Shown here one piece after another: positions 23,298 to 64,000 of a stretch of DNA of 64,000 nucleotides. Source of the DNA: a virus; IMG/VR virus record IMGVR_UViG_3300016644_000052, positions 1 through 64,000 of that record, one strand, 5' to 3'. The notes beneath the pieces are model-generated. The model saw nothing but the letters and a program-made list of their open reading frames with translations, was not told where the DNA came from and searched no databases. How positions within the stretch are numbered: position 1 is the stretch's first letter; each line of letters opens with the position of its first letter. A program made the translations under genes and the position numbers.

Positions 23298-23587
23298 GTC
23301 CGGACCCTTTCTGAAGGAGTATTATGTTCAATCCACCGGTCGGCCCCCCTGCTCTTTCCCTATCGGCCCCCTGGCGGGGGCCTGGGGAACGCGGTGGGCC
23401 TCCCTGTGGTGAGGGGTATGGACAATGATCTTTAGAGGGACTATTGATTTCCTTCAGTTTTCGACACTTTGGCAGTCTCTTCTTCTAAAAGTATAGAGGG
23501 AGGGAAGGCTACTCCTATTGTCTAAACCCCATGTAAACATGGGATTTTATTCCAAAAATAGGAGGAGGAAACTCTCACAGAGTCCTC

Positions 23588-23692
23588 ACTCAGTTGAAGC
23601 GAATCAGACTCCAGTCTGGACTCAGTTCGAACTCTGTCAGACTTTGTTTGGCTTCAACTCCCTCAGACATTCTGTTCAATACAGACTCAGTT
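23588..23692 (+). repeat. three copies of ACTCAGTT
   Basis: Copies at 23588, 23620 and 23685. The palindrome CAGACTCCAGTCTG lies between the first two. Confidence 0.5.
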
Positions 23693-24369
23693 CCCACTCA
23701 CTCCAGGTTGAGCTGGGGCTTCCTTGGCTCCAGTCAGGGTTCTCTTTGGCTCACTCGCCCAGCGAGTTTTCCACGAGGGGAGCAAAGCTAGAGATATCTT
23801 CAGGGTTCTTTGGGGCTTTAGTTCCCCTTAAGATTACACCCAAGACATTCATGGTTCACCGCCTGGTTGGGCGGCGTCAAACCCCAGTGACAGGTGGGGA
23901 CAATAACAGTCACAGCGAGGGGGGCGAACTCCTCCTCAGGTAAGCAGGCTCCGGCTTTCTTATCTGGGTACAGCCTTGAACTCGCAGCGGTACTAGGTCC
24001 GCTTGATCAAAGCCTGGAACGAAGTTCCCTAACAGGGGGGCGGGTCGCAAGGGAAAGGAGAGGTTGAGCAGTGCATGGCTCCCTCTCCTTTTTCTTTTCT
24101 CACGCTGAAGCGCTGGAACCAACGGGATAGACAGCCGGCCAGGCTCTCCCTCCTAGTTATCTCCCTATAGGGACCATTCTCATATAATTTTTGGGACAAG
24201 CCTCACTGGCTCATCTCCTGGATTACTCTGTCCCAGGAACCAAGAGGCTCACCAGGACAAGGTCCCCCCATGCTTATCTCGCTAGGGCAGTGGGGATTTT
24301 TGCTCATGTAGGTTCTGGTGCAGTGTATCTACACCACCACCCACCCCAATATCAGAGTACCCCCCCCGG

Positions 24370-24416
24370 TACACTGGGATACACTGGGTCACCTACCCCC
24401 ACTTCATTACACTGGG
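24370..24416 (+). repeat. three copies of TACACTGGG
   Basis: Copies at 24370, 24380 (10-bp spacing) and 24408. The third runs into the hairpin at 24414-24426. Confidence 0.7.
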
Positions 24417-24440
24417 CCTTCGGCCTGGCGCTTACGCGCC
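24414..24440 (+). promoter_or_regulatory. two adjacent short hairpins, candidate vRNAP-type early promoter or early-region control element
   Basis: GGCC-TTC-GGCC has a 3-nt loop that reads GAA on the template strand. It is followed by GGCGC-TTAC-GCGCC. Both lie about 180 nt upstream of the first early ORF. N4 vRNAP promoters are small hairpins with 3-nt loops. Confidence 0.3.
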
Positions 24441-24621
24441 TTGAGGAGTGAATTGAGCGTTCACTCTGCACGGCGTAGCCCTCTGCTCACAGCCACTCAG
24501 GCCTGTCCTATGCCTTAAGCAAGCATAGCTTCAGTCTCATGGGTAAGTCCCCAACAGCACCACCAGTTGCTGGCTAATACTGGTCCCCTTTCTCTTTCAA
24601 CCTTTTGATAGGAGTCCTCTT

Positions 24622-24807
24622 ATGGCTCAGCTTGGTCATTCCATCCGCACTGAATCGGATGATTACTACGAAGAACTCGCCTCAGAGTTCCGTGAATACA
24701 TGGCTCAGCATGATGCTCATGTCATCACTCGTGGCTTCCACCTTAACAACCTTCGTCTCGTTGCTTCGGGCCGTCAGCCCAATCCTTCCCCTGTTCTCGA
24801 ACTCTAA
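24622..24807 (+). CDS. early hypothetical protein
   Basis: First plus-strand ORF after the non-coding region. AGGAG lies 7 nt upstream of the ATG. Confidence 0.5.
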   Translation: MAQLGHSIRTESDDYYEELASEFREYMAQHDAHVITRGFHLNNLRLVASGRQPNPSPVLEL

Positions 24808-36917: not shown

Positions 36918-37145
36918 ATGCCACTCTCGGAAGTATTCCGGGCCAACTTGCGTGCGGCTATCAAGGCACACCCGTTGCCGACCAAGGCTATCAGCCACAA
37001 GGCCGGCTACAACTACGCCTACGTGCGCAAAGTCATGTCCGGCTCCAAAACCAATCCCACCCTGCAATTCGTCGAAGCCCTGGCTCAAGTCTTGGGCGTC
37101 ACTGCGACAGACTTGCTGACCAGCAATGGATCCAATCATGCCTGA
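36918..37145 (+). CDS. XRE/Cro-CI family helix-turn-helix regulator
   Basis: ATG at 36918. LRAAIKAHPLPTKAISHKAGYNYAYVRKVMSGSKTNPTLQFVEALAQVLGVTATDLL fits the HTH_3 pattern. Confidence 0.6.
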   Translation: MPLSEVFRANLRAAIKAHPLPTKAISHKAGYNYAYVRKVMSGSKTNPTLQFVEALAQVLGVTATDLLTSNGSNHA

Positions 37146-40191: not shown

Positions 40192-40524
40192 ATGGAGAAA
40201 AGCACTATGAGCACTCAACCTCTTACTCGCAACAACCCCCAGAGCTGGCTCGACACCATCTGGGATGCTCTTGGCGGCTACCGCGAAGACTGCATCCCTG
40301 AATCCGAAGGCGACCCAATCTATGACGCCCTGTGGGACGACATCTGCACCGCCATGGCCTGGATCAGCGAAGAACTGGGCATCGACTCTGCTGAATCGGA
40401 ATCCATGCACAGCATTCTAGACCTGCTCAGGCGCTTGGCTCACCCGCTCAACGAAGCTGAACTCCACATTGCGCAGCAAGAAGCCAAAGATCTGATCTCT
40501 CAATTCAATGGAGATAATCCATGA
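40192..40524 (+). CDS. hypothetical acidic protein
   Basis: 110-aa track ORF. The start may instead be 40207. Confidence 0.5.
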   Translation: MEKSTMSTQPLTRNNPQSWLDTIWDALGGYREDCIPESEGDPIYDALWDDICTAMAWISEELGIDSAESESMHSILDLLRRLAHPLNEAELHIAQQEAKDLISQFNGDNP

Positions 40525-41051
40525 GCGTCGTCAACGGAGCAAACCTGTTCCAGTTGGCTCCTATTGCCAACATGCTCCCCACCAAGGAACGCAACCACGG
40601 CGTCAGCCATGGCTTGGCCGAAGCAGGTTATGACATCCGCATCAAGCAGACTGTTCGTTTTGCGCCTCAAACACCTGACTACGTTAATTGTGTTCATTGG
40701 GTAATTGAGCCGGGAGACGAACACACTCAGTGTGTACTCCCATACCGGCCAGGTCGCTTCACTCTCGCATCTGCGATTGAAGAGTTTACTATGCCAGAGA
40801 ACCTAGTCGGCATTGTTCACGACAAGTCGACTTGGGCCAGACAAGGTCTGTCAGTATTCAACACCGTAATCGAGCCAGGCTGGAAAGGTTTCCTTACCCT
40901 AGAACTGGTCTATCACGGCAATAAACCTTTAACAATTCCAGCAGGCGCCGGAATTGCCCAGGTTCTGTTCCACCGGCTCGACAGCTTCGCCTCATACACC
41001 GGCAAGTACCAAGACCAGGCTGATGAGCCTGTCGCCTCAATCTTCACTTGA
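40521..41051 (+). CDS. dcd: dCTP deaminase family protein
   Basis: GYDIRI, KSTWARQGLSVFNTVIEPGWKGFLTLELVYHG and YTGKYQDQ. Confidence 0.8.
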   Translation: MSVVNGANLFQLAPIANMLPTKERNHGVSHGLAEAGYDIRIKQTVRFAPQTPDYVNCVHWVIEPGDEHTQCVLPYRPGRFTLASAIEEFTMPENLVGIVHDKSTWARQGLSVFNTVIEPGWKGFLTLELVYHGNKPLTIPAGAGIAQVLFHRLDSFASYTGKYQDQADEPVASIFT

Positions 41052-41068
41052 TATAAAAAGGAGCACGT

Positions 41069-41425
41069 ATGAACATTCATACCAGCTTGCCTGCCCCCTT
41101 TTCAGTCTCCCAGCTGGCTCACCGCTGGGGCTGCTCGGAAGGATTGATCCGTAAACTCATCCGAGAAGGGCGGCTGCAATGTTTTCGTCCCGGAACTCTG
41201 ATCCGGATCGCAGTCTCGGAAGTGGAACGCTACGAATGCCAAAACATGCAGACGAATATTCCGTCCAGCGATTCCGCGGCGGATTTGCCATCGTCTGGCA
41301 AGAACCAGATGGAACAGGCAATCGAGTCCGCCGTCGCCGTCAGCTTGCCTCGGAAGATCGGGCGAGCGCCGAAGCGGAAGCCCGTCAACTTTGGGAAGGA
41401 ACGGATCCTGCCGCCTGGACCGTAG
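41069..41425 (+). CDS. excisionase/AlpA-like helix-turn-helix protein
   Basis: FSVSQLAHRWGCSEGLIRKLIREGRLQCFRPGTLIRIAVSEVERY fits the family. The last 60 or so codons overlap the integrase frame, so the true C-terminus is unclear. Confidence 0.5.
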   Translation: MNIHTSLPAPFSVSQLAHRWGCSEGLIRKLIREGRLQCFRPGTLIRIAVSEVERYECQNMQTNIPSSDSAADLPSSGKNQMEQAIESAVAVSLPRKIGRAPKRKPVNFGKERILPPGP

Positions 41426-42237
41426 GCAAGATCATGCGGGCCTACATGGACACGCTGACCCACAAGCCATCATACCCCCGCCGCAAAGACGCATGGAAAG
41501 CCATGCAGATCTACTGGGAAAACGTCGATCCAGCCCTGATCGACGAACCCATGTGCCGGCAGTACCGGGAACGACGTAAAGTCAGCGATGCCACGGCCCG
41601 CTACGAGCTGCTGCAACTATCCACTGCGCTCAACTGGGCCAGAACCAATGGCCCCAAACTTTCCTACAAGCGGACCATCTGGCTCCCATCCACGCCTGAA
41701 CGCAAAGAGCGTCACCTTACGCGGGAAGAATTTCACCGTTTCTTTGCCGAAGTAAGGGCAGACCATGCCCGGCTCTATGTTATGATCGGAATCTACACCC
41801 TGGCCCGGCCAGGGGCGATTCTCGAACTGACCTGGGACCGGGTCGATTTCATGCGCCGCCTGATCGATTTCAGTCCAGCGGGACGAATCGGTACACGCAA
41901 GCGGCGCACTGTCACTCCGATCAGCGACAATCTCCTGCCTCATCTCCAGCGAGCGTTCGAAGCTCGCACTTCACAATTCGTGATCGAGCATGGCGGCGAA
42001 CCCCTCAAGAGCATCAAGAAAGCCTTCGAGGCGGCCAGCAAGAGGAGCGCTGTCCACGCAACCCCCTATACGCTGCGTCATACCGGCGCTGTTTGGGCTG
42101 CCGAAGCAGGCGTTCCCATGGCGGAACTCGCTCAATTCATGGGACATGATGACGATCGGACGACTCAAAAACACTATGCCCGCTTCAGCCCGAATTATCT
42201 GTCGGGCGTAGCCAATGCCATCGGTGCAGTGGCCTGA
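41236..42237 (+). CDS. int: tyrosine recombinase / phage integrase
   Basis: Arm-binding-like N-terminus (YSVQRFRGGFAIVW). Catalytic elements ARPGAILELTWDRVDF, HTLRHTGAVW and GHDDDRTTQKHY. Confidence 0.85.
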   Translation: MPKHADEYSVQRFRGGFAIVWQEPDGTGNRVRRRRQLASEDRASAEAEARQLWEGTDPAAWTVGKIMRAYMDTLTHKPSYPRRKDAWKAMQIYWENVDPALIDEPMCRQYRERRKVSDATARYELLQLSTALNWARTNGPKLSYKRTIWLPSTPERKERHLTREEFHRFFAEVRADHARLYVMIGIYTLARPGAILELTWDRVDFMRRLIDFSPAGRIGTRKRRTVTPISDNLLPHLQRAFEARTSQFVIEHGGEPLKSIKKAFEAASKRSAVHATPYTLRHTGAVWAAEAGVPMAELAQFMGHDDDRTTQKHYARFSPNYLSGVANAIGAVA

Positions 42238-42304
42238 GGTTCACGTTGAACCTTGGGCCACTGTTTTTTTAGTCAGTAAATGTGGTCTAAGTCATTGAAA
42301 AGAT

Positions 42305-42350
42305 TGGTCGGGGAAAGAGGATTCGAACCTCCGGCCCCTGCCTCCCGAAG
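42305..42350 (-). other. attP-like core: 3' half of a tRNA-Pro(CGG), from the anticodon loop to CCA
   Basis: The reverse complement reads TTCGGGAGGCAGGGGCCGGAGGTTCGAATCCTCTTTCCCCGACCA. There is no matching 5' acceptor or D-arm upstream. It lies 68 nt downstream of the integrase stop. Confidence 0.7.
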
Positions 42351-42789
42351 ACGCTTCTCCGGGCCGAATACCGCAGATTTCCGTGGTACGGTCCTCGTCT
42401 TTCGTGGCTTTTGGCACCCTTTGTTCCGTCCTTGTTCCGGTCCAAGGTTCAAGGCGAACCTTGAACCCCTGTCTGTTTCGGCTTCGCCGTTAGCAACCAC
42501 CCCTGGCTCTGACAACCAGGACCGGATGGTCAGCCATGCCTGGGCAGGGCGTGCAAAACTATTGCTCTCATTCTGGAAGTAACTAGCAAGTAAAACGTCA
42601 CTCACCTTTGAGATAAAAAGAATTAATCCCCCTGTTTTCTGATTCAATAGTTCTGTTCATCTCTTGTTCTCGTTAACCATTAGAGTTATTATGTTAAGCA
42701 GACGGGAAGAAAAGCCCCTGCATTAGTGGCCTAATTCCCGATCTGTGTCGCACAACTAGAATTGTCTTCAGACAATCGGGGGTCAACTA

Positions 42790-43101
42790 ATGCCTATCCC
42801 AGTTGCACAACTTGTCGAACAAGCCGCAGATCTATTCAATGTTCCGACCAAGGACATTCTCTCGCCTTCTCGTCTCCAAGAGCACGTTCGTCCGCGTGGA
42901 GCCATTGCCCTCGCTGCTTTGCTCAGTGGCCGTGGCCAGGTCGACATTGCCCGTCGGCTCCAGCGCAAATGTCACAGCTCGATCCATTCGCTCATCAAGA
43001 GCACCCGTCAGCGGATCGAAGCCAATGCTGATTACCGAGCCAAGGTCGAAGCACTGATTGCAACCGCTACCGACTGGAACAGCAAATACGCCATCCAATG
43101 A
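42790..43101 (+). CDS. DnaA domain IV-like (Bac_DnaA_C) helix-turn-helix protein
   Basis: SRLQEHVRPRGAIALAALLSGRGQVDIARRLQRKCHSSIHSLIKSTRQRIE parallels E. coli DnaA [47 protein letters not shown]. Confidence 0.65.
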   Translation: MPIPVAQLVEQAADLFNVPTKDILSPSRLQEHVRPRGAIALAALLSGRGQVDIARRLQRKCHSSIHSLIKSTRQRIEANADYRAKVEALIATATDWNSKYAIQ

Positions 43102-43246: not shown

Positions 43247-43789
43247 ATGACATTCATGCGAGCACTCGAAAGCGGACTGCATTATCTGTCCGACCGAACC
43301 AAGAATATCATCCGCTGCCGCCAACAGGCTCGATCGCAGAGCCTGACAAAAACCAAAGAGCCAATGGTGCAAACCGTGGCTCCAATCCCGCAGCGGGTAA
43401 CTGTCCCTATCGTCCGCAAGACGACTTCCAACCAGGCTCGAACAGCCAGCAGGCTCTATGGCCAGATGATGAACAGCGACCACCCGGTCAGTGACCGTCA
43501 GGTGGCCGCCAATGAACTCAGTTTCCTACGCAAGACCAACAATCTGAGCTGGCTGGAGCTGGGCCTGCCAATGCATACCCAGAACCACATCAAGCAAGTC
43601 CTCGCACTTGCTATCCCGGCTTCTACCAAGGCTCCTGGCCGCCAGACCGCTACGCGGTCTGAGCGGGCAAGGGCCTTGTACGAAGCCGGTAAATACTCCG
43701 AGCTTCGCCAATTCAAAAGAAAAGTGAAGATCGGATGGTATAGTCTCGGCTTCAATGACTTCGAGATTTCCACGATCACCCAGAGTTAA
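43247..43789 (+). CDS. hypothetical basic protein
   Basis: ATG at 43247 in track ORF 43058-43789. The start is uncertain. Confidence 0.4.
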   Translation: MTFMRALESGLHYLSDRTKNIIRCRQQARSQSLTKTKEPMVQTVAPIPQRVTVPIVRKTTSNQARTASRLYGQMMNSDHPVSDRQVAANELSFLRKTNNLSWLELGLPMHTQNHIKQVLALAIPASTKAPGRQTATRSERARALYEAGKYSELRQFKRKVKIGWYSLGFNDFEISTITQS

Positions 43790-46028: not shown

Positions 46029-46529
46029 ATGGAAGGCCGTACATTATTCGCTCTCATTCAAGTCCTTTGCAACAAGCTGTTTGAGCGGGAAGAGGCCCGG
46101 ATCGACTCGGTTCTCAAGACCATCTGGACCAAGAATATCGCCCTGAGCCGGGTCAACCATGACGGCTTCATCTACAAGGGTGACTATTATCGGCCCAAGT
46201 CTCTTCCCAATGCGGCCTCGGTCAAGGCAATCCTCCACTCCGAACTGGATGACACCATGGAGGCTTTTCTTGCCGACCAGCGGCGGGTCAAGGACGAGCG
46301 CAAGACCATTGAGCAAGTCCTGACCAAGCTGCTGCGTCCGTGCCAAGACTTCACGGAAATCCGCAACGCTCTGCCCAACTGTCTGGCCGACCTGCTCGAA
46401 CAGACTCAAGGCATCCAGCGAACCAGCGAGGAAGCATGGACCCTGGCTCAGGATGAGCGGGGAATGCGCCAATACCTCAAGGTTCGCCCCCTGATGGAAT
46501 TCTATTCCGCAGCCAGGCTACTTTATTGA
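46029..46529 (+). CDS. hypothetical replication-module protein
   Basis: 166-aa ORF between the helicase and polymerase genes; its stop overlaps the polymerase start. Confidence 0.5.
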   Translation: MEGRTLFALIQVLCNKLFEREEARIDSVLKTIWTKNIALSRVNHDGFIYKGDYYRPKSLPNAASVKAILHSELDDTMEAFLADQRRVKDERKTIEQVLTKLLRPCQDFTEIRNALPNCLADLLEQTQGIQRTSEEAWTLAQDERGMRQYLKVRPLMEFYSAARLLY

Positions 46530-48541
46530 TGCGACACCTGACCTTCACCAATGCCAGCACCTACCCGGTCTGTTTCCTGGTTCCGACCATCCGCAAGGAT
46601 GAAATCGAAAAGGAATACCTTGATCCGTTCCAGGTCAATGCAGACCAGGTGTTGGTCCTCGACCTCCATTATTCCCAAGACAAAAAGAAGACCCCGGCAG
46701 CTGAGATCAAGCAGTACATCGAAGAGGAACTGGTTCCGACCTTCGAGCAGATGGGCTGCCAGTACCTGCTCGTTGCTGACGGCGACTACTTCAAGGCCCT
46801 GACCAAGGCGAGCAAGGTCGAAGCCAATCTCGGCTACGTCCTTGACTGCGCCTGGGGCGACTGGAAGGTGATCTATGTTCCGAATTATCGGGCGATTTTT
46901 TACGATCCTGACAAGACGAGAGCCAAGATCAACCAGGCTATGCAGGCCTTCACCGAGCACCGCACCGGTGTTTACCAGGCGCCTGGGGCACACATCATCA
47001 AGACTGCCCATTATCCGGCGACTTACGGCGATATCTTCGCTTGGCTCAACCGGCTCCTCGACATGGACTGCGATCTTGCCTGTGACATCGAGACCTTCAG
47101 TCTCAAGCACCACACCGCAGGAATCGGCACTATCAGCTTCGCCTGGAACCAACACGAAGGAATAGCCTTCGCCGTTGACCTCAACGAGGCTGAAGCCCAG
47201 CAAATCCGCAGTGCTTTGCGGATGTTCTTCTGCGCCTTCCAGCACAAGCTGGTGTTCCACAACATCGCTTTCGATGCCTACGTGCTGATCTACCAGTTGT
47301 TCATGACAGACATCCTCGACACCGAGGGTCTGCTGAACGGCATGGAAGTCATGCTCCGGGACTGGGACTGCACCAAGCTGATCACCTATCTCGCCACCAA
47401 TTCGTGTGCGGGCAACAAGCTCAGTCTCAAGGACCAGGCCCAGGAATATTCTGGCAACTATGCCCTGACGGACATCAAGGATATCCGCCAGATTCCTTTG
47501 GAACACTTGCTGCGCTACAACCTGATCGACACGTTTTCGACCTGGTATGTGCATAACAAGCATTACCAGACCATGGTCAATGACCAGCAACTCGGCGTCT
47601 ATGAAGAGATCTTCAAGCCCGCCACGCTGGACATCATTCAGATGCAGCTGACCGGGATGCCGCTCAACATGGAGCGGGTGAAGGAAGTCAAGCAGCTGCT
47701 CGAAGCTGACTACAGCCGTGAGCTGGACCGGATCATGAACTCACCCATTGTGGGCCGGTTCACTTATGATCTCAACGAGGCCTGGGTCGAAAAGCGCAAC
47801 GCCAAGCTCAAGAAAAAGCGAGTCAGCTTGGCTGACGCCAATGAGACCTTCAATCCCAATTCCAACCCGCAGCTGCAAAAGCTGCTCTACGAAATGCTTG
47901 GTCTGCCTGTCTTGGCTCTGACTGACAGCAAGGAACCAGCGACAGATGGCTCAACCCTGAAAGCGCTCAAGAACCACACCCAGGATCCGCAGATCGTCGA
48001 GTTCCTGGATGCCTTGCTCGGCTACTCTGCCGTCAACAAGATCCTGACCAGCTTTCTTCCAGCCATGGAGAATGCAGCTCAGGGACCGGATGGCTGGCAT
48101 TACCTGTTCGGCAACTTCAACTTAGGCGGCACGCTATCGGGCCGCCTCAGCAGTTCTGATCCAAACCTTCAGAATCTGCCGGCCAATTCCAGCTATGCCA
48201 AGCTGATCAAGTCCTGCTTCCAGGCACCGCCTGGTTGGCTGTTTGTTGGTCTGGACTTCGCTTCGCTAGAAGATCGCATCTCTGCGCTTACCTCCAAGGA
48301 TCCCAACAAGCTCAAGGTCTATAAAGACGGTTACGATGGTCACTCCTTGCGGGCTTATGCCTATTTCAAGGAGCAGATGCCCGACATCCTGCAAGCTGAG
48401 GGTCGGCGTGTCTTTGAAGTGCAACAAGATGGCCAGATTTTCTATCTGTTCGAGGGTGATGAGATCATCACTCCGAACGGACAGACCATGACAATTGAAG
48501 CTTATCAATCCAGAATGAAACAATTGGAGAGTGCGGCATAG
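46526..48541 (+). CDS. family A DNA polymerase, N-terminal fragment (3'-5' exonuclease, thumb, motif A)
   Basis: Exo I CDIETFSL and motif A VGLDFASLEDRISAL. Ends at TAG after a non-conserved 45-50 aa tail. Confidence 0.85.
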   Translation: MMRHLTFTNASTYPVCFLVPTIRKDEIEKEYLDPFQVNADQVLVLDLHYSQDKKKTPAAEIKQYIEEELVPTFEQMGCQYLLVADGDYFKALTKASKVEANLGYVLDCAWGDWKVIYVPNYRAIFYDPDKTRAKINQAMQAFTEHRTGVYQAPGAHIIKTAHYPATYGDIFAWLNRLLDMDCDLACDIETFSLKHHTAGIGTISFAWNQHEGIAFAVDLNEAEAQQIRSALRMFFCAFQHKLVFHNIAFDAYVLIYQLFMTDILDTEGLLNGMEVMLRDWDCTKLITYLATNSCAGNKLSLKDQAQEYSGNYALTDIKDIRQIPLEHLLRYNLIDTFSTWYVHNKHYQTMVNDQQLGVYEEIFKPATLDIIQMQLTGMPLNMERVKEVKQLLEADYSRELDRIMNSPIVGRFTYDLNEAWVEKRNAKLKKKRVSLADANETFNPNSNPQLQKLLYEMLGLPVLALTDSKEPATDGSTLKALKNHTQDPQIVEFLDALLGYSAVNKILTSFLPAMENAAQGPDGWHYLFGNFNLGGTLSGRLSSSDPNLQNLPANSSYAKLIKSCFQAPPGWLFVGLDFASLEDRISALTSKDPNKLKVYKDGYDGHSLRAYAYFKEQMPDILQAEGRRVFEVQQDGQIFYLFEGDEIITPNGQTMTIEAYQSRMKQLESAA

Positions 48542-48722: not shown

Positions 48723-49466
48723 GTGGGAAGTGCTGTCGTTATAAAAGCTAACGCAGAGATCAAAGAGCTTGATTCGACGGCATTCGATGTAGCGCAAATT
48801 AACTCCATTGAGACCCGTTATAAACCGCTGCGCCAAGACTCTAAGGCACCGACATTCGCCCTTACATACCAGGGCACTTATCGTACCCTGATGGTCAACT
48901 GCGGCTTTCCGGAAGCCAAGGCCAAGTCGATCGAGCAACGCTACCACGAGATGTACGAAGTCAGTGATCGCTGGGTCGCTGCCAAGCTCGATGAAGCTAC
49001 CCGCACTGGCTACGTCACCGTCGCTTTCGGTCTGCGGGTAAGAACCCCGCTGCTCAAGCAAGTCATTCGCGGCACCAGCAAGACCCCATTTGAAGCAGAG
49101 GCTGAAGGCCGGACTGCTGGCAATGCGCTCGGTCAGTCCTGGTGCCTGCTCACTTCCCGTGCTGGCTCCGAATTTCTCGGCAAGGTCCGCAAGAGCCAGT
49201 ACAAGTACGACATTCGTCCTACCTCTCAGATCCATGACGCCCAGTATTTTCTGGTGCGAGATAACATCAGCGTCGTCGAGTTTACCAACCGCCATCTCGT
49301 CGAAGCTGTCCAGTGGCAAGACCACCCAGAGATCTATCACGACCTCGTGAAGCTCGGCGGCGAACTCTCCATCTTCTATCCTTCCTGGAAAGAAGAGATC
49401 GGCATCCCCAACGGGGCAAGCCGTCAAGAGATATTCGCCATCATAGACAAAGTAATGAGCAACTAA
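48723..49466 (+). CDS. family A DNA polymerase, C-terminal fragment (motifs B and C)
   Basis: GTG start with AAGGAG 7 nt upstream. Motif B RQDSKAPTFALTYQG and motif C SQIHDAQYFLV. Confidence 0.8.
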   Translation: MGSAVVIKANAEIKELDSTAFDVAQINSIETRYKPLRQDSKAPTFALTYQGTYRTLMVNCGFPEAKAKSIEQRYHEMYEVSDRWVAAKLDEATRTGYVTVAFGLRVRTPLLKQVIRGTSKTPFEAEAEGRTAGNALGQSWCLLTSRAGSEFLGKVRKSQYKYDIRPTSQIHDAQYFLVRDNISVVEFTNRHLVEAVQWQDHPEIYHDLVKLGGELSIFYPSWKEEIGIPNGASRQEIFAIIDKVMSN

Positions 49467-56050: not shown

Positions 56051-56085
56051 AAAGCCCCCCAGGAAACTGGGGGGCTTTCTTTTAT
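56051..56085. terminator. bidirectional rho-independent terminator between convergent blocks
   Basis: AAAGCCCCCC-AGGAAACT-GGGGGGCTTT, flanked by A-runs and T-runs. Confidence 0.8.
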
Positions 56086-59000
56086 CAGTTCACCAGATTG
56101 AGCCAAGGCAAGAGCATCGGCGCCCTAAACATCTGGCCTGGACCAATCGAGTAGGGCAGTTTGCCTTCGAGGCCCAGAGCCACAGCATTGTCGACGATTG
56201 GTGAACCCACCGAGCCAAGGAAATCTGGCACCGGGATAAAGCTGGCCAGCAGCGCATGAACCGGGTTGTTCCGCAGCATCGACATGGCGATCTTGGTCGA
56301 GCGGATCTTGAAGTGGTAGAACCACATCAACCCGTTGTTTTCCAGGGCACCACGGAACCGGCCAGGCAAGCGGTCATAGTTGACGAACTCTTCGCTGATC
56401 CGGCCCAGTGCTTCTGCCTGGCTCTTTCCGCCACGGGTAGTCAGGTCGTCATAGAGCACGGCCTTGGCAAGGAAGTCGCCGTATTGCACCGCCCGCTGGA
56501 GACCAGCAAACAGGGCAGTGTCCCGGCTGATGATCGCATAGCGACCAGCAGTGCGAACTTCCTGCGGCAGCTTGTCGACCTGCTTTTCGATGTAAGCGTT
56601 GAGCTTACCCGAAGAGAGCAAGATCTCGTCGTGCGTAATGGCAACGTCGGAGATCGAGCTGAACTCGCCTGCTTCGATCAGCGGCCAGATCGACAGACGA
56701 CGGTGTCCGTCCTGGATCGACTGGATCTCGTTCTGGAGCTTGCGCCGCTTGAGCGGATCGTCTTCTACCGCGGCAAGCTCTGCCTGGGCATCGAGCAAGC
56801 GCAGCCGGGACCGGGTATAGCTATCAACCTCGGCAGTTTTCTTTTTCATGCCGCGAACGATATCCAGCATTGGCACACCGCGAGACGAAAGTTGGATTAC
56901 GTTAGCCGCCATATTGCTGACTGGAACGATTACCGACTTGATCACGATGAACAGCTTGGCTTCGATCACCAGGTTCTGAAGCAGCTTCTCGGCATTGACC
57001 AGGTAACGGTAGGCATCATTGCCGAATGCCGCAGTAGCAACATTCTTGATCCCTTCCTGGACAGGCTTGGGCAGACGGGTATTGCCCGTCCAGCTATCAC
57101 CGATCGAAGCTGAGCGGTAACCGACCACATCCTCGACCATGTCCTTGCGGACCATGAACCGGTCCCCAAACACACCGCGAATGTAGAACTTCATCTCGTC
57201 GGTCATCAGCTTCATGCTGTCTTGCAGCACCGGATCGAGTTTTGTGGTGTCGAACAGATCGACGTATTCCCGCTTCTTGTCCGGATTTTCGTTCAGATCT
57301 CGATCGTACATCGCCTTGAGATTGTCGACCAAGGTCTCGTTGACGTTCTCAGCCAAAGACTCTTCAACCTGGCGGCCCCGCCAGGCGCCAAGCATCTTGG
57401 CAAGGTGCGTGCTCTGCTCAAGCCGGGCCAACTGGACCGGATCAACGCTGCGTTCAAAAGCAACAACCTCACCGGCTGAGCTAAAGACCGGGAGCAGGGC
57501 CGAACCCTGTTCGGTCATCGGAAAATCAAGAATGTCCTTGATCACTACCGGGTCGGTAATTCTCCCGGCAGTCATGATCCCGGTGGTATAGCCCGTGTCG
57601 AGATCGACCCCGGCAGCCGTCGGGCGAATATTCTGGGCAATGCCCTGATTGTAACCAGCCCGAGCCGAGACCGGAGCATAGTAATAGCTGCGGCGGGCAT
57701 AGTTGCCGCCACCGATCAGTTCGAGCGAGGAAGGCTGATACGGCGCCACTCGGATATAACCGCGTGACACCAGGTCAGCGTAGTTCCGATCGTCTTCAAT
57801 CACCAGCGACGAAGAACCATCGGACTCCATCGGGGCATAGCCCTTGTAGTGATTGTACTTGGCACCATTGGCATCAGCTTTCAGCACTTCCTGTTTGCGG
57901 TTGTACTCAAGCTGGGCAAGCGAAAAGCCCATGCCTTTGCTTTCGGTCTGAGCCAAGGCAACCAGGGTGTCCTTGGTGTTCTGGTCCAGCTCGTTCACGG
58001 CATAAAGCGAGATCAGCTGATTGAGCGCCGAGATCATTTCTTTGCTGGCAGCAGGACGATTGCGGACCTTCTCACCAAGCAGATCAGCCACAGCCACAGC
58101 ATTACGCAGCTGGTTCTGGGCAGCTTCACGGGTCACCATGAAGTGGGCCAGTTCCTTGGACTTCTTCTGGAGCAGGTTCCAGTGCTTGGGATCCATCTGC
58201 CGGATATCGTTCTCCAGCGAGCGAATCTTGTCAGCCCGCAGCGAACTGTCTGCCAGCAGCTCGATTACCTGCGTTTGGCTCATCCGGCCAAAGGTCTTGA
58301 GCGCTGCCAGATCAGTCATGGCCATGCCCTTGAACATTGCCGTCCACTCGTGATCCTTGATCTTGCGGGTGAACTGATTGGCAATCGTGTCGGGCAAATG
58401 TTCGCGGAATTGCTGACGGACAGCCTGGACCGTCGAGCGAACCAGCTTAATCATGTCATAGACTTCCTGATTGCTCAGGGTTCGTCCGACAAAGTCACTG
58501 ACCAGACGCTTGAATGCCAGCGGTAGATCAGACTTGTTGACCAGCGACATGGCTCCGGAAGCCACAGCTTCGCCGCCTTCTTCTGTAACCATCTGGGCTG
58601 CGATCTTGACCACTTGAGCAGCAGCTTTGGCAGCCTTGCTGTTGGTCGTATCGATTACGCTCTGAGCCTTGTCAGCCGCAGCACGGGACAGGGCGCCCAT
58701 GCCGTCGACTACCCACTGGTTCAGCTGATCGATCTTGCGTCCCGTCGGGGCAGCAATCTGATCAATGATCCCTTGGCGCTTCTGCGTCACGGCAACCATG
58801 GCAGCGTTGAGCGAGTCCAGCGCATCCTTGATGTTGGTAGCCTTGGCATCCTGACCAGACATCTTGAGCGAGAGGCTTTCCATTGCTTCGTTACCGAGGT
58901 TCTGGAGCACACCGTCCAGATCCTTGGCTTTACGCCGGCTGTTCTTCGGAACTTCCATCTTGGCTAGGACATCCCGGAACCGCGCATTGGTCGTAGCCAA

Positions 59001-62000
59001 AGCCAGGAATGAAGACATCAGCGTCGAACGACCTTTGGTGTCCTTGAGCGTGAGGAACTTGCCCATCACCGCGTCATAGCGTTCCTGGGCCGCAGCTTCT
59101 TCAGCCGGATCAAGCGATTCAGGGTCAGCCATGAAGTCTGACGGAGTCAGGGTCTTCTCGACATGGGCGTAGAGTTCCTGAACGCGGGACATGACATTGC
59201 CGTCGAGCTTGATGCTGGTGGCCATCACCTGCATCATCATCTCGAAGGTGGTCTGTTCCTGGGCAGTCATCGGGAAACCGTGAGCCTGGAACATCAGCGC
59301 CATGTTGCCACCAACCGTGATCGCATCTTGGACTTCGTTGTCGGCACGCGTCTTGGCGTAAACATCGCCGCTATCCAGGAAGGCTGCAATCTTGTCGTTG
59401 AGCATCTGGTTCAGAGCAACCAGACGATCGTCCTGACCATAGGCAGCATTCTGGTAGCTGACCGTGTCACCCAGCTGGGCAGACAGGCTGGGCTGACCCT
59501 GCATCAGAATTGCAGTGTTGAAGCGCAGCTGGCTGAACATGTCGTTGCCGGGCAGAGCTACCTGCTTGCGGCCAAACACCAGCTTCTTGATGAAAGCCAC
59601 GGCCTTCTGAGCCAGGAGTGCAATGCCCTTGGCCTGGTTGGCCTTGCCCTGCTTGATAAGGGCTTCGTTGCTCAGCGACCAGGCCATGAACTCGTTGAGC
59701 GCCTTGGCTCGTGCCAGGATCGGACTGATCGTGGCGTCGTTCAATGCAGCCTGAATTGCCCGGCGTGCAGCCATGTTGGCTTCGGCCAGACCTTCTTCGA
59801 TGCTGAACGTCTTGCTGATGTCCATGAACTGGCTCATCAACGCCTCAATCCGCTGCACCGCCTCGACCTGTTCGGCGTTCTTGAGATCGCCATTCAGAGC
59901 GCCGACAACCTTCTCAAAGGTGGCAGCGTGGATCAGTTCGTGGACCAGCGTTTCAAGCGACGGCTCGTAGAGGTAGATCGTCTTGTCCGAGTAACGCACC
60001 ACGCCCTTGTCGCCACTGTTGTACGGCACATGGCTCTTGCCGTGATTGCGGGCATAAGCCTGGGTCTGGGCAGGGCTGCCCACTACTACCGTGTAACCCT
60101 TGCTGGCGAGGGAGCGCAGCACATCGGACAGCACTTCCTGCTGGCTCGTCGGGAACGCCTTCAAGATCCGGTTGAGGTTCTTGACCGCCGTAAACGACAA
60201 GACACGGGCACCACTCCTGGCATCGACCCGGCCTACCTGTTGGAGAGCCTTTTCAATTGGCTCAACCGTTTTGGCCGGAGCTTCATCGCCAAACAAGTAG
60301 CGGGTGTTAGTTTCCGCTTCCTTGGTTTGGTTCAATTCTTCGGCCAATGCTTCATTGAGAATTTCAGCCTGATCTTCGGGCGAAAGGCCAGAGAGATCAA
60401 TCTCACCTTCGTTGACGTAAGGCGACGCAACCGAGGCCATTTGATCAACACTGAACTTGAACCGGGCCATTACCCGCTGCCGGGCAGCAACCTCATCAGC
60501 AGCCCGTTTGATCTGACCCGGCATGGCTTCAAGCCGCGCCTTGATTGATGCAACGCTGATTGAATTCTCATCTTCAGCCAGACCATAAAGTGCCTTGGCC
60601 AAAGCTCGGTGCTCAGCCGTGCTGAGGTTGTCGAGCGAGATATTCTGCGCAGCTACGACAAAAGCGTCATAGACCGCCTGCATCGGATTGGACTGCCAAG
60701 CCTGGTAAGCTGCCTGGTTGGCCTTGACGCTGTCTTCCTCGATCGAGGACAGCTTCATGTGCATCCCGTCAAAGACCTTGAGCGTCCCGGTTGGGGCGCC
60801 GTCCATAGTCGCCAGGTTTTGCATCATCTGTCCGTCACCGGTGCCAATCACCAGGAACGGAATACCGGACACTCCAGAGTCAGCCGGACCATAGACTTCA
60901 GCTGCCGTGCGCAGAGACTCATCAAAAGCACGGCTCAGCTCAGGGCTGCTCTTTTCCTTGAGCTTCCCGTTCTTCATGGCTTGGGCTTCGGTAGCCTTGC
61001 TCGCTTGAGCCAAGGAAACCGCATCAATCTCAGCAGAAGTTGAGCCAGCAATGAAGAAATTCTGGTGCTCGGTTTTGACCAGCGGGTACTTTGTCAGCAG
61101 GTTCTTCAGGATCTTCTGAAGCTCGCTGCGATAAAGAAAGTCTCCGACCTTCCAGTTCGGATCCTTGCGCTTGCTGTCATAGAGCTTGGCAACTTCACGC
61201 TGGAACTCGAACTGCATAGCAATCGACTGGACCTGTGTTGCCTGTCGCAGCAGATCGGCGTTCTCCAGCATATTGCCTGCCAATGTGCTTTCAATGGCTG
61301 CTCGCAGCGGAGAAACAAAGACCTTCAACAGGTTATTCTGAAGTGCTCTGAAGTCGTCCCGGTTGAACGTCAGCTCCTGGAACGTAGTCCCACGCTTCGG
61401 CGCAAACTTGCGGCGGGTTGCTGCCAGAAATGGACCTTGCTTGCCGTTAGCCAGCTGGAACTCGATCAACTGGTTAAGCGAAGTGTGGAACTTGTTCCAC
61501 AATTGTTCGGCCCGTTCCGGATCGCCGTTGGCTTCCTTGCCGAACATGGCCATGGCATTGCTCAAGCTGGGATCTTTAGCCTGGGCTTCGCTTGCCGCGG
61601 AAAAGCGAGCATAGACCTCGTCGAGCAAGGCCTTGGCAAAGTTGTTGGCAATGCCGTTCTCACCCGAGCCATAGATCGTGATGGTGAGGGGATTCTTGGC
61701 AATTCCACGCTTTAGCTCAAGCTCGCCGTTCTTGAATTCAAGATCAGGCAGGATCAGGTCCATCAGATCCAGGACCGAAGTCAGCTGCTTACCAAACGGC
61801 CCATTCCGATTACCGTTTAGCACACTGCTCAGACCTTGCTTCAAAGCATCGGTGACAGTCTGGTACAGATCCTTACCATCAGCAGCTCGCTGCTCGTGCA
61901 TGGTCTTGGCGTTGCCAAAAAGCAGACCGCCCTTTGCCATGTTGCGGATCCATTCTGCACTGAACTGACCAGAAGTCAGAATTGCCATGGCGTTGATCGG

Positions 62001-64000
62001 GCCATTGGTGACCCCATCCGCTTCGACGTAAAGCGCAGTTCGGAAAGCTTTGCGCTGCTCGGTGCTGGCATTCTGATAGCGGGCATATTCCATCAAGGCA
62101 TGGACAGCGACAGCCGAAGGGGCACCGCCAATTTCTTGCTTGATCGCCTCGATCCACGCAGGATCGAAACCGGCAGTCTCGCTCAGACCTTCGTTGTCGA
62201 GCCAGTTGCGCATGATTTCCAGAGACTTCGGCAGCTCAGTTTCGAGCTTCTTGAAGACCTCTTCGGCAGATTCTTCGCGCGAGACACGTTCAACCTTGAT
62301 CCCTAGAGCTTGAGCCAGGGCCAGAGAGAATGCCCTGAAGTCTTTGGTTCCACGGCTCGACAGATCCAGTTCCGACCAGCTCGGCAGAATGGCTTCACGC
62401 ACTAGCTTGCTGGCCTGCGGATTGTGCCGGCCTTGCATCTGCATACGGTTCACTCGGCTAAACTCGTATTCGTAGTAGATCGGCAGCTCACCAGCTTCGA
62501 TGTCTTGCGCCTCAGCCCGGTTCCGGACATCAGCAATCAGGCTCATTAGCGAGACATAGGCAGAATGAACCGTCCGGTTCTTACCATCGAGCGACTTCAG
62601 GTGATTCTTGTTGAGCGGTTTGCCATCGGTTTGACCGACCCCAAACAAGCTGACGACACCCATCTCGCCCAGCGCTTCGTAAAAACGAACCATCTGGGAG
62701 TTAATGAAGTGCGGCGTTTGCTGCTCTGCTTCGATAGCAGCTTTCTGCTGTTCAGTCAGCGGTGCCAGCTCGTTGCGCAGCTGCGAACGGGGAACTCGCT
62801 TTGATGGTTCGCCAATAAAGCGAGTCTCTTCTGGCTCGACCAGGACTGCATCTTCGATTGCTGTAGGGTATGCGTTCAGCGCTTCCTCAGCAGGAAGCCT
62901 AAAAGGGGCATACACATCTAAGGTTTTACTATCATACTCAAGTCTGGTTCTGGTTAGGCCACCAGAACTCATCAGGCCTCGGATGATTTCTTTAGCAACA
63001 GCTTCTGGAATACCTTCGACATAACCAGCCGAAGTTTTGCTATTGGAATCCAATCCCCAAAACTTTTTGATCTCTTGAGCCAAAGACCTAGAGATTTGAG
63101 GGGCGCCAACCCCATCGCTCAAAATAGTTAGGATATCAGTTTTTAGATTACCCTTATCATCCAGATAAGAGTACTCGGTGTACTCGTCAGCCGCGACTTC
63201 AATGTTCAAGCCATCAAACTCGCTAGAGCTTACTCCGAGGATCTCGGCAGCAGCATCTTCATCGACAGCGCCAATGTGCTTGTCAGCATTCAAGATCCAC
63301 TGAAGCCCGGCCAGAATAGCGCTTTCCAGCAATTCCTGGTTGTAAGAGAACGTACCATCTTCGTTCTCTTCAACGATGTTGAGTGCTTTGCCGCGTAGCT
63401 CGCGGTTGATTGCCTTGCCTTCAGCCAAGTGCTGGGCAACGCTTTTGCCATTGTAGTCGCTGTTCAAGAACTCCAGCAGATTGGCTTCCACCGCCTGCTT
63501 GATCTCGTCAGCCTGAGCTAGGAAACGCTGATACGACTGGGCAATGTCACTGTTGTAGCGCTTCTCCAGGATCTGCGAGCCGGTGAATGCCCCCAGCTTT
63601 GCAGCACTACTCAGCGCATCCCGGATAACCGACAGCGGAGCCTCTGATCCCGTGGTCCTGGACTTGGGATTTTCCGGAAGCTTGAATGCTTTTGTGAACC
63701 AGTTGGTCAGAGCCTTGACCTTTGAGCCAAGCAGGTTCGGAAACATTCCTTCAATCCCCTTCTTGGCAGGCTGGGGCTTAGCCTGCTCTGAAGGAGTTTC
63801 TTGATCCGCGTTGGTTACCGGGGCGGTTACCGTTAACTCTGAATCTTCTACGGGATTCGCGCTATCCGGTGCATCAGATTGGTTACCGGCTACGGATCCG
63901 GTATCGTCTGCTTTACCTTCGGACTGCGCTTCCGCCTGGGTCTGATCCGTGCCTTGGTTCTGAGCTTCTGGCTTGGAAACAGGATCGGAAGGAGCATCGG
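56085..64000 (-). CDS. virion-encapsidated RNA polymerase (N4 gp50-like vRNAP), partial; the 5' end lies beyond the window
   Basis: The frame has no stop from 56085 to 64000 (I checked it upstream of the track's first Met at 63746). Motifs: T/DxxGR-like RVNRMQMQGRHNPQ, motif A YVEADGVTNGPINAMAIL, motif B RGIAKNPLTITIYGSG, motif C LKVFDGMHM. Confidence 0.9.
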   Translation of the reverse strand, partial: DAPSDPVSKPEAQNQGTDQTQAEAQSEGKADDTGSVAGNQSDAPDSANPVEDSELTVTAPVTNADQETPSEQAKPQPAKKGIEGMFPNLLGSKVKALTNWFTKAFKLPENPKSRTTGSEAPLSVIRDALSSAAKLGAFTGSQILEKRYNSDIAQSYQRFLAQADEIKQAVEANLLEFLNSDYNGKSVAQHLAEGKAINRELRGKALNIVEENEDGTFSYNQELLESAILAGLQWILNADKHIGAVDEDAAAEILGVSSSEFDGLNIEVAADEYTEYSYLDDKGNLKTDILTILSDGVGAPQISRSLAQEIKKFWGLDSNSKTSAGYVEGIPEAVAKEIIRGLMSSGGLTRTRLEYDSKTLDVYAPFRLPAEEALNAYPTAIEDAVLVEPEETRFIGEPSKRVPRSQLRNELAPLTEQQKAAIEAEQQTPHFINSQMVRFYEALGEMGVVSLFGVGQTDGKPLNKNHLKSLDGKNRTVHSAYVSLMSLIADVRNRAEAQDIEAGELPIYYEYEFSRVNRMQMQGRHNPQASKLVREAILPSWSELDLSSRGTKDFRAFSLALAQALGIKVERVSREESAEEVFKKLETELPKSLEIMRNWLDNEGLSETAGFDPAWIEAIKQEIGGAPSAVAVHALMEYARYQNASTEQRKAFRTALYVEADGVTNGPINAMAILTSGQFSAEWIRNMAKGGLLFGNAKTMHEQRAADGKDLYQTVTDALKQGLSSVLNGNRNGPFGKQLTSVLDLMDLILPDLEFKNGELELKRGIAKNPLTITIYGSGENGIANNFAKALLDEVYARFSAASEAQAKDPSLSNAMAMFGKEANGDPERAEQLWNKFHTSLNQLIEFQLANGKQGPFLAATRRKFAPKRGTTFQELTFNRDDFRALQNNLLKVFVSPLRAAIESTLAGNMLENADLLRQATQVQSIAMQFEFQREVAKLYDSKRKDPNWKVGDFLYRSELQKILKNLLTKYPLVKTEHQNFFIAGSTSAEIDAVSLAQASKATEAQAMKNGKLKEKSSPELSRAFDESLRTAAEVYGPADSGVSGIPFLVIGTGDGQMMQNLATMDGAPTGTLKVFDGMHMKLSSIEEDSVKANQAAYQAWQSNPMQAVYDAFVVAAQNISLDNLSTAEHRALAKALYGLAEDENSISVASIKARLEAMPGQIKRAADEVAARQRVMARFKFSVDQMASVASPYVNEGEIDLSGLSPEDQAEILNEALAEELNQTKEAETNTRYLFGDEAPAKTVEPIEKALQQVGRVDARSGARVLSFTAVKNLNRILKAFPTSQQEVLSDVLRSLASKGYTVVVGSPAQTQAYARNHGKSHVPYNSGDKGVVRYSDKTIYLYEPSLETLVHELIHAATFEKVVGALNGDLKNAEQVEAVQRIEALMSQFMDISKTFSIEEGLAEANMAARRAIQAALNDATISPILARAKALNEFMAWSLSNEALIKQGKANQAKGIALLAQKAVAFIKKLVFGRKQVALPGNDMFSQLRFNTAILMQGQPSLSAQLGDTVSYQNAAYGQDDRLVALNQMLNDKIAAFLDSGDVYAKTRADNEVQDAITVGGNMALMFQAHGFPMTAQEQTTFEMMMQVMATSIKLDGNVMSRVQELYAHVEKTLTPSDFMADPESLDPAEEAAAQERYDAVMGKFLTLKDTKGRSTLMSSFLALATTNARFRDVLAKMEVPKNSRRKAKDLDGVLQNLGNEAMESLSLKMSGQDAKATNIKDALDSLNAAMVAVTQKRQGIIDQIAAPTGRKIDQLNQWVVDGMGALSRAAADKAQSVIDTTNSKAAKAAAQVVKIAAQMVTEEGGEAVASGAMSLVNKSDLPLAFKRLVSDFVGRTLSNQEVYDMIKLVRSTVQAVRQQFREHLPDTIANQFTRKIKDHEWTAMFKGMAMTDLAALKTFGRMSQTQVIELLADSSLRADKIRSLENDIRQMDPKHWNLLQKKSKELAHFMVTREAAQNQLRNAVAVADLLGEKVRNRPAASKEMISALNQLISLYAVNELDQNTKDTLVALAQTESKGMGFSLAQLEYNRKQEVLKADANGAKYNHYKGYAPMESDGSSSLVIEDDRNYADLVSRGYIRVAPYQPSSLELIGGGNYARRSYYYAPVSARAGYNQGIAQNIRPTAAGVDLDTGYTTGIMTAGRITDPVVIKDILDFPMTEQGSALLPVFSSAGEVVAFERSVDPVQLARLEQSTHLAKMLGAWRGRQVEESLAENVNETLVDNLKAMYDRDLNENPDKKREYVDLFDTTKLDPVLQDSMKLMTDEMKFYIRGVFGDRFMVRKDMVEDVVGYRSASIGDSWTGNTRLPKPVQEGIKNVATAAFGNDAYRYLVNAEKLLQNLVIEAKLFIVIKSVIVPVSNMAANVIQLSSRGVPMLDIVRGMKKKTAEVDSYTRSRLRLLDAQAELAAVEDDPLKRRKLQNEIQSIQDGHRRLSIWPLIEAGEFSSISDVAITHDEILLSSGKLNAYIEKQVDKLPQEVRTAGRYAIISRDTALFAGLQRAVQYGDFLAKAVLYDDLTTRGGKSQAEALGRISEEFVNYDRLPGRFRGALENNGLMWFYHFKIRSTKIAMSMLRNNPVHALLASFIPVPDFLGSVGSPIVDNAVALGLEGKLPYSIGPGQMFRAPMLLPWLNLVN

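Follow-up and report, generated by a model that had tools for sequence, protein, structure and literature searches.

N4-like phages (Schitoviridae) are described in textbooks as strictly lytic and hence are widely proposed for phage therapy and biocontrol. The present analysis concerns a putative integration module in a genome of this type, namely in the virus record IMGVR_UViG_3300016644_000052 of IMG/VR, of which positions 1 to 64,000 were analyzed (this whole stretch of 64,000 nucleotides (nt) is referred to as the window). The module is located between the gene for dCTP deaminase (DCD) and the replication genes, giving the order DCD-xis-int-attP-DnaA_C-like-helicase. A first-pass annotation made from the letters alone had recognized an excisionase-like gene, a tyrosine recombinase and the 3' half of a tRNA-Pro as phage attachment site (attP), and had proposed that either the phage lysogenizes at a host tRNA-Pro gene or a small integrative element has been captured here. 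The module comprises the following features, with all positions given for the window; loci used for comparison are cited by L numbers.

41069-41425, plus strand: excisionase-like HTH_17 gene (xis), with the helix-turn-helix (HTH) domain at amino acids (aa) 11-59 and a tail overlapping the start of int in another reading frame
41236-42237, plus strand: gene (int) of a predicted lambda-type heterobivalent tyrosine integrase of 333 aa; an alternative upstream ATG lies at 41179
42226-42270, plus strand: P-arm element with a conserved 29-nt motif (42237-42265) that overlaps the int stop codon
42305-42352, minus strand: attP core of 48 nt that agrees fully with the 3' part of tRNA-Pro(CGG), beginning with 3 nt of the 5' anticodon stem and ending with CCA
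42353-42478, plus strand: P' arm with a conserved TTTCCGTG block, the TTGTTCCG direct repeats (42421 and 42432) and the second copy of the motif (42445-42474)

The recombinase at 41236-42237, for which the first-pass annotation had reported R...HxxR...H..Y elements, is a tyrosine integrase according to its profile matches to PF00589 (E = 1.9e-16, 60.8 bits at a cutoff of 27.1) and phrog_1 (2e-45), but the supposed HxxR box reads Y278-T-L-R281. The catalytic set consists of R191, K222, R281, H304 and Y314, which are invariant in the family and represent five of the six canonical residues (R-K-H-R-H/W-Y), while the position of the first histidine (His-II) is occupied by Y278 (window 42067-42069). 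All 40 homologues aligned have this tyrosine, as do at least 98% of a set of 121, and the substitution appears to be a trait of the whole integrase family, including members located at real chromosomal attachment (att) junctions. The AlphaFold2 (AF2) model of the protein (predicted local distance difference test, pLDDT, 86) features the strands 9-13, 16-24 and 30-36 and a helix 42-56 at the N-terminus, followed by a helical core-binding domain and then the catalytic domain. Its top Foldseek matches in the Protein Data Bank (PDB) are the full-length lambda Int structures 1Z1B and 1Z1G (E ~1e-9 over ~346 columns). Because of this lambda-Int-like three-domain fold, the enzyme is predicted to be a heterobivalent integrase of the lambda type and, thus, to need arm-type sites. 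Among INPHARED phages, the best matches to the integrase are only ~34% identical (cyanophages), and none of the 30 matches listed is N4-like.

The excisionase-like nature of the HTH gene ahead of int, likewise proposed at first pass, is supported by matches to PF12728 (HTH_17, 8.5e-8, 32.8 bits at a cutoff of 27) and to phrog_66, 'excisionase and transcriptional regulator' (2.9e-4). A Shine-Dalgarno sequence (AAGGAG) is found 5 nt 5' of the xis ATG. Such an xis-like open reading frame (ORF) upstream of, and overlapping, int is kept in all 18 family loci examined. Besides, the HTH_17 ORF runs ~57-63 codons beyond the int start (41236-41425), and the overlap is open in 18 of 18 loci, with products of mostly 111-138 aa; a conserved Ser-rich tail of the excisionase-like protein may therefore be encoded inside the int gene.

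The core begins 67 nt past the int stop codon on the opposite strand and is identical in 48 of 48 nt to Novosphingobium tRNA-Pro(CGG). The fragment had been described before as a piece of 46 nt; its presence on the minus strand was reproduced, but the string quoted comprises 45 nt (42305-42349) and the identity extends over 48 nt (42305-42352). A complete phage tRNA gene at this site was considered and ruled out by ARAGORN and Rfam. In the whole window, ARAGORN detected no complete tRNA, and Rfam gave no match at gathering thresholds, the sole sub-threshold match to the tRNA clan being located at the fragment (tRNA-Sec, 16.7 bits). The fragment is thus not a phage tRNA gene, and the earlier description of an incomplete tRNA holds, since neither program found a cloverleaf. 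To judge from its sequence, the tRNA piece is the core of the attP.

The attP comprises ~250 bp (42226-42478), a span that was assigned because integrated forms keep just the int-proximal copy of the motif beside the tRNA. Both arms contain a 29-nt direct repeat with the consensus AGGTTCA-N7-CCTT-N3-CCnCTGT, which matches the plus strand of the 64 kb only at 42237 and 42445 (expected 0.00); a third match, with 2 mismatches, is the minus-strand palindromic counterpart of the first site. The GGTTCA..TGAACC palindromes (located at 42238-42252 and 42446-42467) and the TTGTTCCG repeats that had been noticed at first pass are real, and the palindromes turned out to be part of this longer direct repeat. 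In the N4-like lineage, the first motif copy forms part of a terminator-like structure immediately 3' of the int stop codon, namely an 18-bp hairpin and a subsequent T7. Of the palindromes formerly interpreted as binding sites, the first is at least partly a terminator hairpin.

The second motif copy is located 141 nt from the core start. In 11 family attP and attL sequences, including the chromosomal attL sites of L040 and L064, the motif-to-core spacing is 141-142 nt (152 nt in L002 and L003). Next to int, the motif follows the stop codon directly in L001, L002, L003, L021 and L149 and ~15-25 nt 3' of it in L150 and L157. Moreover, the TTTCCGTG block and TGTTCC-type repeats including the TTGTTCCG pair are conserved between core and distal motif in temperate relatives, too. 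As a significant motif on its own, TTGTTCCG was rejected, with 4 matches compared to 1.9 expected window-wide; it seems to gain meaning only by its conservation in the P' arms of the family. We infer that the arm elements are binding sites for the N-terminal domain of the integrase or for accessory proteins.

A bacterial counterpart of the core, as had been anticipated, exists: many tRNA-Pro(CGG) genes share it exactly. The exact 46-nt core pattern occurs in at least 120 genome stretches, and all of those classified to order belong to the Sphingomonadales, a minority of the core-bearing metagenome-assembled genomes (MAGs) being labeled to phylum or class level only. Named records with the core include Novosphingobium, Sphingobium, Sphingomonas, Sphingorhabdus, Tsuneonella, and Parablastomonas. 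The core extends into a full tRNA at 101 of the 109 loci that were usable. At the level of sequence, the bacterial attachment site (attB) is identified as the 3' part of tRNA-Pro(CGG) and the host clade as the sphingomonads.

The N4-like identity of the window is based on an ORF at 56085-63746 (minus strand) matching the virion RNA polymerase (vRNAP; phrog_2206, E = 0). Related, near-identical contigs feature a 3628-aa vRNAP with Pfam vRNAP domains and also encode a PF00940 RNA polymerase (RNAP), portal, capsid, Dda-like helicase, DNA polymerase A and primase in an N4-like order. Similarity of the region at the DNA level was found to N4-like phages only, with 65-70% identity confined to the helicase and MazG genes. 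In N4-like relatives, the module is absent from this position, and other genes fill their deaminase-helicase interval. Relatives in IMG/VR, with helicases at most 62% identical, feature no integrase between DCD and helicase, and the nearest N4-like relative in a large protein collection (66%) is likewise without an integrase there; the present lineage itself was not found in the IMG/VR collection searched. The module position is a variable region of the genome. With regard to the indel of 41.05-43.86 kb suspected at first pass, a difference of this kind from the relatives does exist, but its extent is ~41052-42789: the acquired segment ends upstream of orf180 (43247-43789), because this gene has a homologue in the N4-like phage ort11.

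Relatives of the integrase include one at 99% and hundreds at 60-74% identity. For the latter group, 19 genomic contexts were examined, and the gene tables of four (L001-L005) were inspected. In all 19 contexts, an xis-like ORF is accompanied by a tRNA-Pro(CGG) or its 3' fragment, which lies on the strand opposite to int at a distance of 60-100 nt from its end. None of the contexts gave a match to those N4-like proteins of the window that were tested, and the inspected backbones (L001-L005), with genes for S24 repressor, RecT, methylases and lysozyme, resemble those of ordinary temperate phages or prophages. An attR-type junction is formed in the Novosphingobium sp. ES2-1 chromosome (CP063445, L001) by prophage, int, a complete tRNA-Pro(CGG) and thyA, in this order. 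Junctions of this type at tRNA-Pro were found in L001, L151, L152, L157, L158, L160, L162, L062, and L095, and attL-type junctions, consisting of host flank, core fragment and P' arm, in L040 (Sphingobium naphthae) and L064 (a Novosphingobium MAG). Given these chromosomal junctions of both types, the family does integrate at tRNA-Pro(CGG) in the manner predicted.

The xis-int-attP modules of temperate sphingomonad phages (L001; the 48.7-kb ENA phage contig L003; the uncultivated viral genomes (UViGs) L149-L164 of IMG/VR) hence contain integrases of the same family, 60-74% identical to the present one. They share with it the HTH_17 overlap, the opposite-strand tRNA-Pro 3' fragment, the 29-nt motif in P and P' and the tyrosine at His-II. 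However, their own inspected backbones are ordinary temperate ones, whereas the present module resides in a vRNAP-carrying N4-like genome; in addition, the present P-arm motif is remodeled into the strong hairpin with T7, and the GC content is lower. The same layout, the same 29-nt motif and the chromosomal attL and attR sites of the temperate relatives therefore indicate that the module was captured as a whole from a temperate sphingomonad phage. A second att-like copy flanking the module, as left by self-insertion of a mini-element, was not detected, since only a single site in the window was hit by a 24-nt core probe when up to 3 mismatches were allowed. As there is a single core copy, an intact attP and no attL/attR pair around the module, it appears not to have inserted through its own site-specific recombination, and capture by non-site-specific recombination is indicated. 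Thus, of the captured small integrative element proposed at first pass, the acquisition stands, with a temperate sphingomonad phage as the source, while the self-insertion does not.

The same gene order is found in contigs of ~65.7 kb from at least three independent assemblies (ENA ERZ3624463, JGI 3300016657, and ENA ERZ27292636) as well as in several shorter contigs. The ends of the ERZ27292636 contig overlap by 141 nt, and the assembly is therefore circular. Sequencing runs holding the phage are SRR6423780, SRR6423781, SRR6423792, SRR18609916, SRR12486995, SRR12486997, SRR26153300 and those underlying ERZ3624463, ERZ27292636 and ERZ27292641. A second sublineage, ~96% identical (L021, L015, L025), carries the module at the same site. 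Between the sublineages, the integrase differs in 23 codons, with 20 synonymous and 3 non-synonymous differences. The ratio of non-synonymous to synonymous divergence (dN/dS) amounts to 0.045 at a dS of 0.088 (versus L021; P = 3.6e-10 under neutrality), compared to 0.022 for the helicase and 0.053 for the DNA polymerase, and int is free of frameshifts and stops across the two sublineages and many samples. Strong purifying selection acts on the integrase, which is not decaying, so that the decaying remnant considered at first pass does not describe it. Likewise, the N4-like sublineages do not differ in the core, the TTGTTCCG repeats or either copy of the motif, while the intervening spacers vary. 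The GC content of the integrase gene is 58.6% (63% at third codon positions, GC3), that of the temperate relatives 62-67% (GC3 72-85%) and that of the phage backbone 55%. Since the integrase value is shifted from that of the temperate relatives towards the backbone, it suggests a long residence in the N4-like lineage.

It is considered moderately probable that a complete and selected lambda-type integration module confers on this phage the ability to integrate. As xis and int are located 17 nt 3' of the deaminase gene and share their orientation with the replication genes, they are probably transcribed together with these, and this transcription is probably stopped by the hairpin and T7 after int. 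According to the fold and the conservation of the motifs, Int would bind the 48-bp core via its core-binding and catalytic domains and the repeated motifs of the P and P' arms via its N-terminal domain. It would then recombine the circular phage DNA with attB, i.e., the 3' part of the host tRNA-Pro(CGG) gene. Recombination would regenerate the tRNA at the int-proximal junction, while the other junction would keep the tRNA fragment and the P' arm. Such an arrangement is found for the integrase family in sphingomonad chromosomes and would by analogy apply to the present phage. The predicted attR consists of window 42270-42352 followed by AGTGCTCTACCAGGCTGAGCTATTCCCCGACC, and the predicted attL of host flank, core and window 42353-42480. 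Excision would be directed by the HTH_17 protein. A more far-reaching proposal, put forward tentatively and with some doubt, is that the lineage is truly temperate: it would integrate at the tRNA-Pro(CGG) of Novosphingobium/Sphingobium-type hosts via a module acquired from a lambda-like phage and persist without a classical CI repressor. The silence of a prophage without CI would be possible since N4-type early transcription needs an RNA polymerase delivered with the virion, which a prophage lacks.

Several observations weigh against integration and lysogeny of the present phage. An integrated copy of it, as expected at first pass, was not found in the assembled contigs searched, raw reads not being included. 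All contigs carrying genes of the phage are at most 67.4 kb long, and every one spanning the site features an intact attP. Among 120 sphingomonad tRNA-Pro loci, none has N4-like genes beside the core, and among the top 120 helicase relatives, none is located on a contig of more than 78 kb. Look-ups of the exact proteins (DCD, integrase, DnaA_C-like protein, helicase and cluster members) returned free-form or truncated contigs only. A scan of genome contigs with the 29-mer of the L027 junction, the contig described below, gave no match. Two pattern scans of JGI metagenomes gave no match either; the collection is evidently without the phage, although the JGI samples 3300016657 and 3300016674 hold it. 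As no integrated copy was found, lysogeny is a trait that we infer. Furthermore, no CI- or S24-type repressor occurs among the annotated products, with 17.8-23.3 kb, 53-56 kb and several small early ORFs being not annotated. The sole repressor-like candidate among these products is a 75-aa Cro/CI-type HTH protein encoded in the early/middle region (36918-37145; PF01381, HTH_3, 9e-6); the sister sublineage has a divergent gene at its position. In addition, xis and int are apparently co-transcribed, a state which favors excision in lambda, and His-II of the integrase is replaced by tyrosine, though throughout the family, including members at real chromosomal junctions.

Finally, the only hybrid-looking contig, L027 (Logan SRR26153300_882611, 2.6 kb), is ambiguous. 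Rightwards of the first core base (42305), this base included, it matches the window with 97.7% identity over core, P' arm and downstream genes. Its left flank (1-600) has a GC content of 50.5% and no open frame of more than 58 aa, and it gave no match in the window, the fetched loci, phages, plasmids or Rfam; it is unlike the flanks of tRNA-Pro in 109 sphingomonad genomes, which feature 61.6±4.9% GC. Although L027 has the form expected of an attL junction, it could also have arisen by Int-mediated recombination or as a chimera assembled across the 48-nt repeat. Three Logan contigs (L028, L171 and L172) have their first base at 42323, 30 nt (k-1) inside the core, and L015 ends at ~42330. Since independent assemblies with k = 31 break at exactly this depth, the core is evidently a sequence that the phage has in common with host tRNA or other phages there; the breaks of L028, L171 and L172 show only the presence of another core-sharing sequence.

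Some of the same observations would also suit a functional and selected module that does not serve stable lysogeny but transient or abortive integration, the exchange of DNA with resident prophages or other core-sharing elements leading to mosaics, or the resolution of multimers or circularization by attP x attP recombination of replicating DNA in a Cre/lox-like manner. Only free-form genomes were seen, no classical repressor was found among the annotated products, and xis-int is apparently co-transcribed within the replication module. Besides, the core is common to many temperate sphingomonad phages, so partner sites are abundant, and in L027, the DNA attached to the N4-like P' arm, with the join falling exactly at the core, resembles neither the P arm of the family nor a typical host flank. 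Nevertheless, both arms, xis and the exact 48-nt tRNA match are conserved, which corresponds to the needs of integration at attB and excision and goes beyond those of dimer resolution. Moreover, as established for lambda Int, attP x attP is recombined poorly by heterobivalent integrases. Such a use of the module is accordingly held to be plausible but rather unlikely.

A recently captured passenger module without function and on its way to decay would explain why none of the other N4-like relatives examined has the module and why it sits in a variable region of the genome. This is very unlikely, however, considering the dN/dS of the integrase with its low probability under neutrality, the lack of frameshifts and stops in two sublineages and many samples, the invariance of the att motifs within a varying spacer and the movement of GC and GC3 towards the backbone. 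That the locus is an artefact, i.e., a chimeric assembly of N4-like and temperate sequences or simply a phage-encoded tRNA gene, seems hardly conceivable. Although hosts and other phages also carry the 48-nt core, a repeat at which de Bruijn assemblies break (L028, L171, L172), two sublineages and independent assemblies produced with different assemblers (ENA, JGI, Logan, NCBI) show the identical arrangement, both module junctions are located in unique sequence, and neither ARAGORN nor Rfam revealed a tRNA.

The module is flanked by the following features:

40521-41051, plus strand: dCTP deaminase gene (PF22769, 5.8e-20; phrog_1663, 2.8e-55), an N4-like backbone gene and left flank of the module
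42479-42789, no strand assigned: non-coding spacer with a GC content of ~49% between attP and the next gene, without significant Rfam match
42790-43101, plus strand: gene of a small lineage-specific protein with a DnaA_C-like HTH, right flank (PF08299, 9.6e-6, below the gathering score)

The dCTP deaminase is ~60% identical in the N4-like loci L006, L007, and L009. In the sister sublineage (L021:4942-5906 and L015:868-1452, compared to window 40661-41051), an extra gene for a 194-aa Endonuclease_7 protein is located between deaminase and xis. There, a divergent sequence takes the place of the 3' two-thirds of the deaminase gene, and the endonuclease ORF can be aligned over its last ~50 nt with the terminal part of the deaminase gene in the window. 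This insertion looks like the invasion of a homing endonuclease with co-conversion. On the other side, the spacer may contain a promoter for the downstream genes. Homologues of the DnaA_C-like protein are confined to the present phage lineage, and the gene was therefore uninformative as a candidate for a part of the captured module or for a regulator.

Further observations concern the remaining genome. DNA polymerase A is present as two ORFs (46526-48541 and 48723-49466, 670 and 247 aa) that are ~180 nt apart, while the nearest N4-like relative, L170, features a single 864-aa gene; no Rfam intron match was obtained in the split gene. Window positions 1-1523 and 63904-64000 differ from the otherwise 99% identical 65.7-kb contigs (versus L166/L167:16247-21088). 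The differing segment lies between a gene for a 795-aa structural protein and the N-terminus of the vRNAP and resembles a swapped tail-fibre or vRNAP N-terminal region. The vRNAP ORF of the window is called from 63746 (2553 aa), compared to 3628 aa in relatives. Within a structural gene on the minus strand, secondary BLAST hits indicate an internal repeat at 15782-16582, ~76% identical at an offset of 141 nt. Between the leftward structural and the rightward early genes, ~1.3-1.5 kb at 23300-24800 are without convincing ORFs and likely represent a terminal or early-promoter region.

Compared to bacteriophage lambda, the present system likewise features a three-domain Int, predicted in this case, a small HTH gene upstream of and overlapping int, an attP of ~250 bp and repeats on both sides of the core. 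In contrast, the integrases are only ~18% identical, and the core is a 48-nt 3' part of a tRNA instead of the 15-bp overlap region of lambda. His-II is a tyrosine here, the arm motifs are unrelated to those of lambda, and arm binding is putative.

A combination of lytic-type podovirus genome, own RNA polymerase, integrase and tRNA-matching attP is also known from the cyanopodovirus P-SSP7. T7-like pelagiphages of the HTVC019P type carry an integrase as well as an attP that corresponds to a portion of a host tRNA gene, and their integration was shown experimentally (Zhao et al., 2018, bioRxiv 10.1101/410191). They resemble the present phage as podoviruses of a 'lytic type' with an RNA polymerase of their own, an integrase and a tRNA-matching attP, but belong to the Autographiviridae instead of the Schitoviridae, use other integrases and target tRNA genes for Cys, Leu and Arg. 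Unlike in these phages, the early transcription of N4-like phages relies on an RNA polymerase delivered by the virion, which raises different questions on the silencing and induction of a prophage.

Within the N4-like viruses, 54 genomes or proviruses with integrase or transposase genes were reported, and a lysogenic strategy was argued for them (Zheng et al., 2023, mSystems, PMC10654107). The statement of the first-pass annotation that N4-like phages are regarded as obligately lytic is therefore out of date. These UViGs and proviruses share with the present case an N4-like backbone combined with an integrase. However, they are documented by gene presence and proviral regions, mostly in Moraxella, and the paper makes no mention of an attP, an excisionase, a tRNA target or sphingomonads (PMC10654107). 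As integrase-bearing N4-like viruses have already been reported, the present case is a well-specified addition and not a new kind.

In earlier metagenomic surveys, some N4-like genomes were reported to carry integrase genes, but no attachment sites, targets or signs of maintenance were given. The present case supplies a full and testable specification, including int and the excisionase-like gene, the 250-bp attP and its conserved arm motifs, the exact attB, a culturable host clade, the donor family and population-genetic signs of selection on the integrase. If integration were confirmed, the infection program of N4 would be compatible with lysogeny, and caution would be called for in inferring lytic behavior from family membership alone. 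If the lineage were truly temperate, it would represent the first mechanistically defined and experimentally tractable case of lysogeny in the Schitoviridae and would raise the question of how such a prophage is induced.

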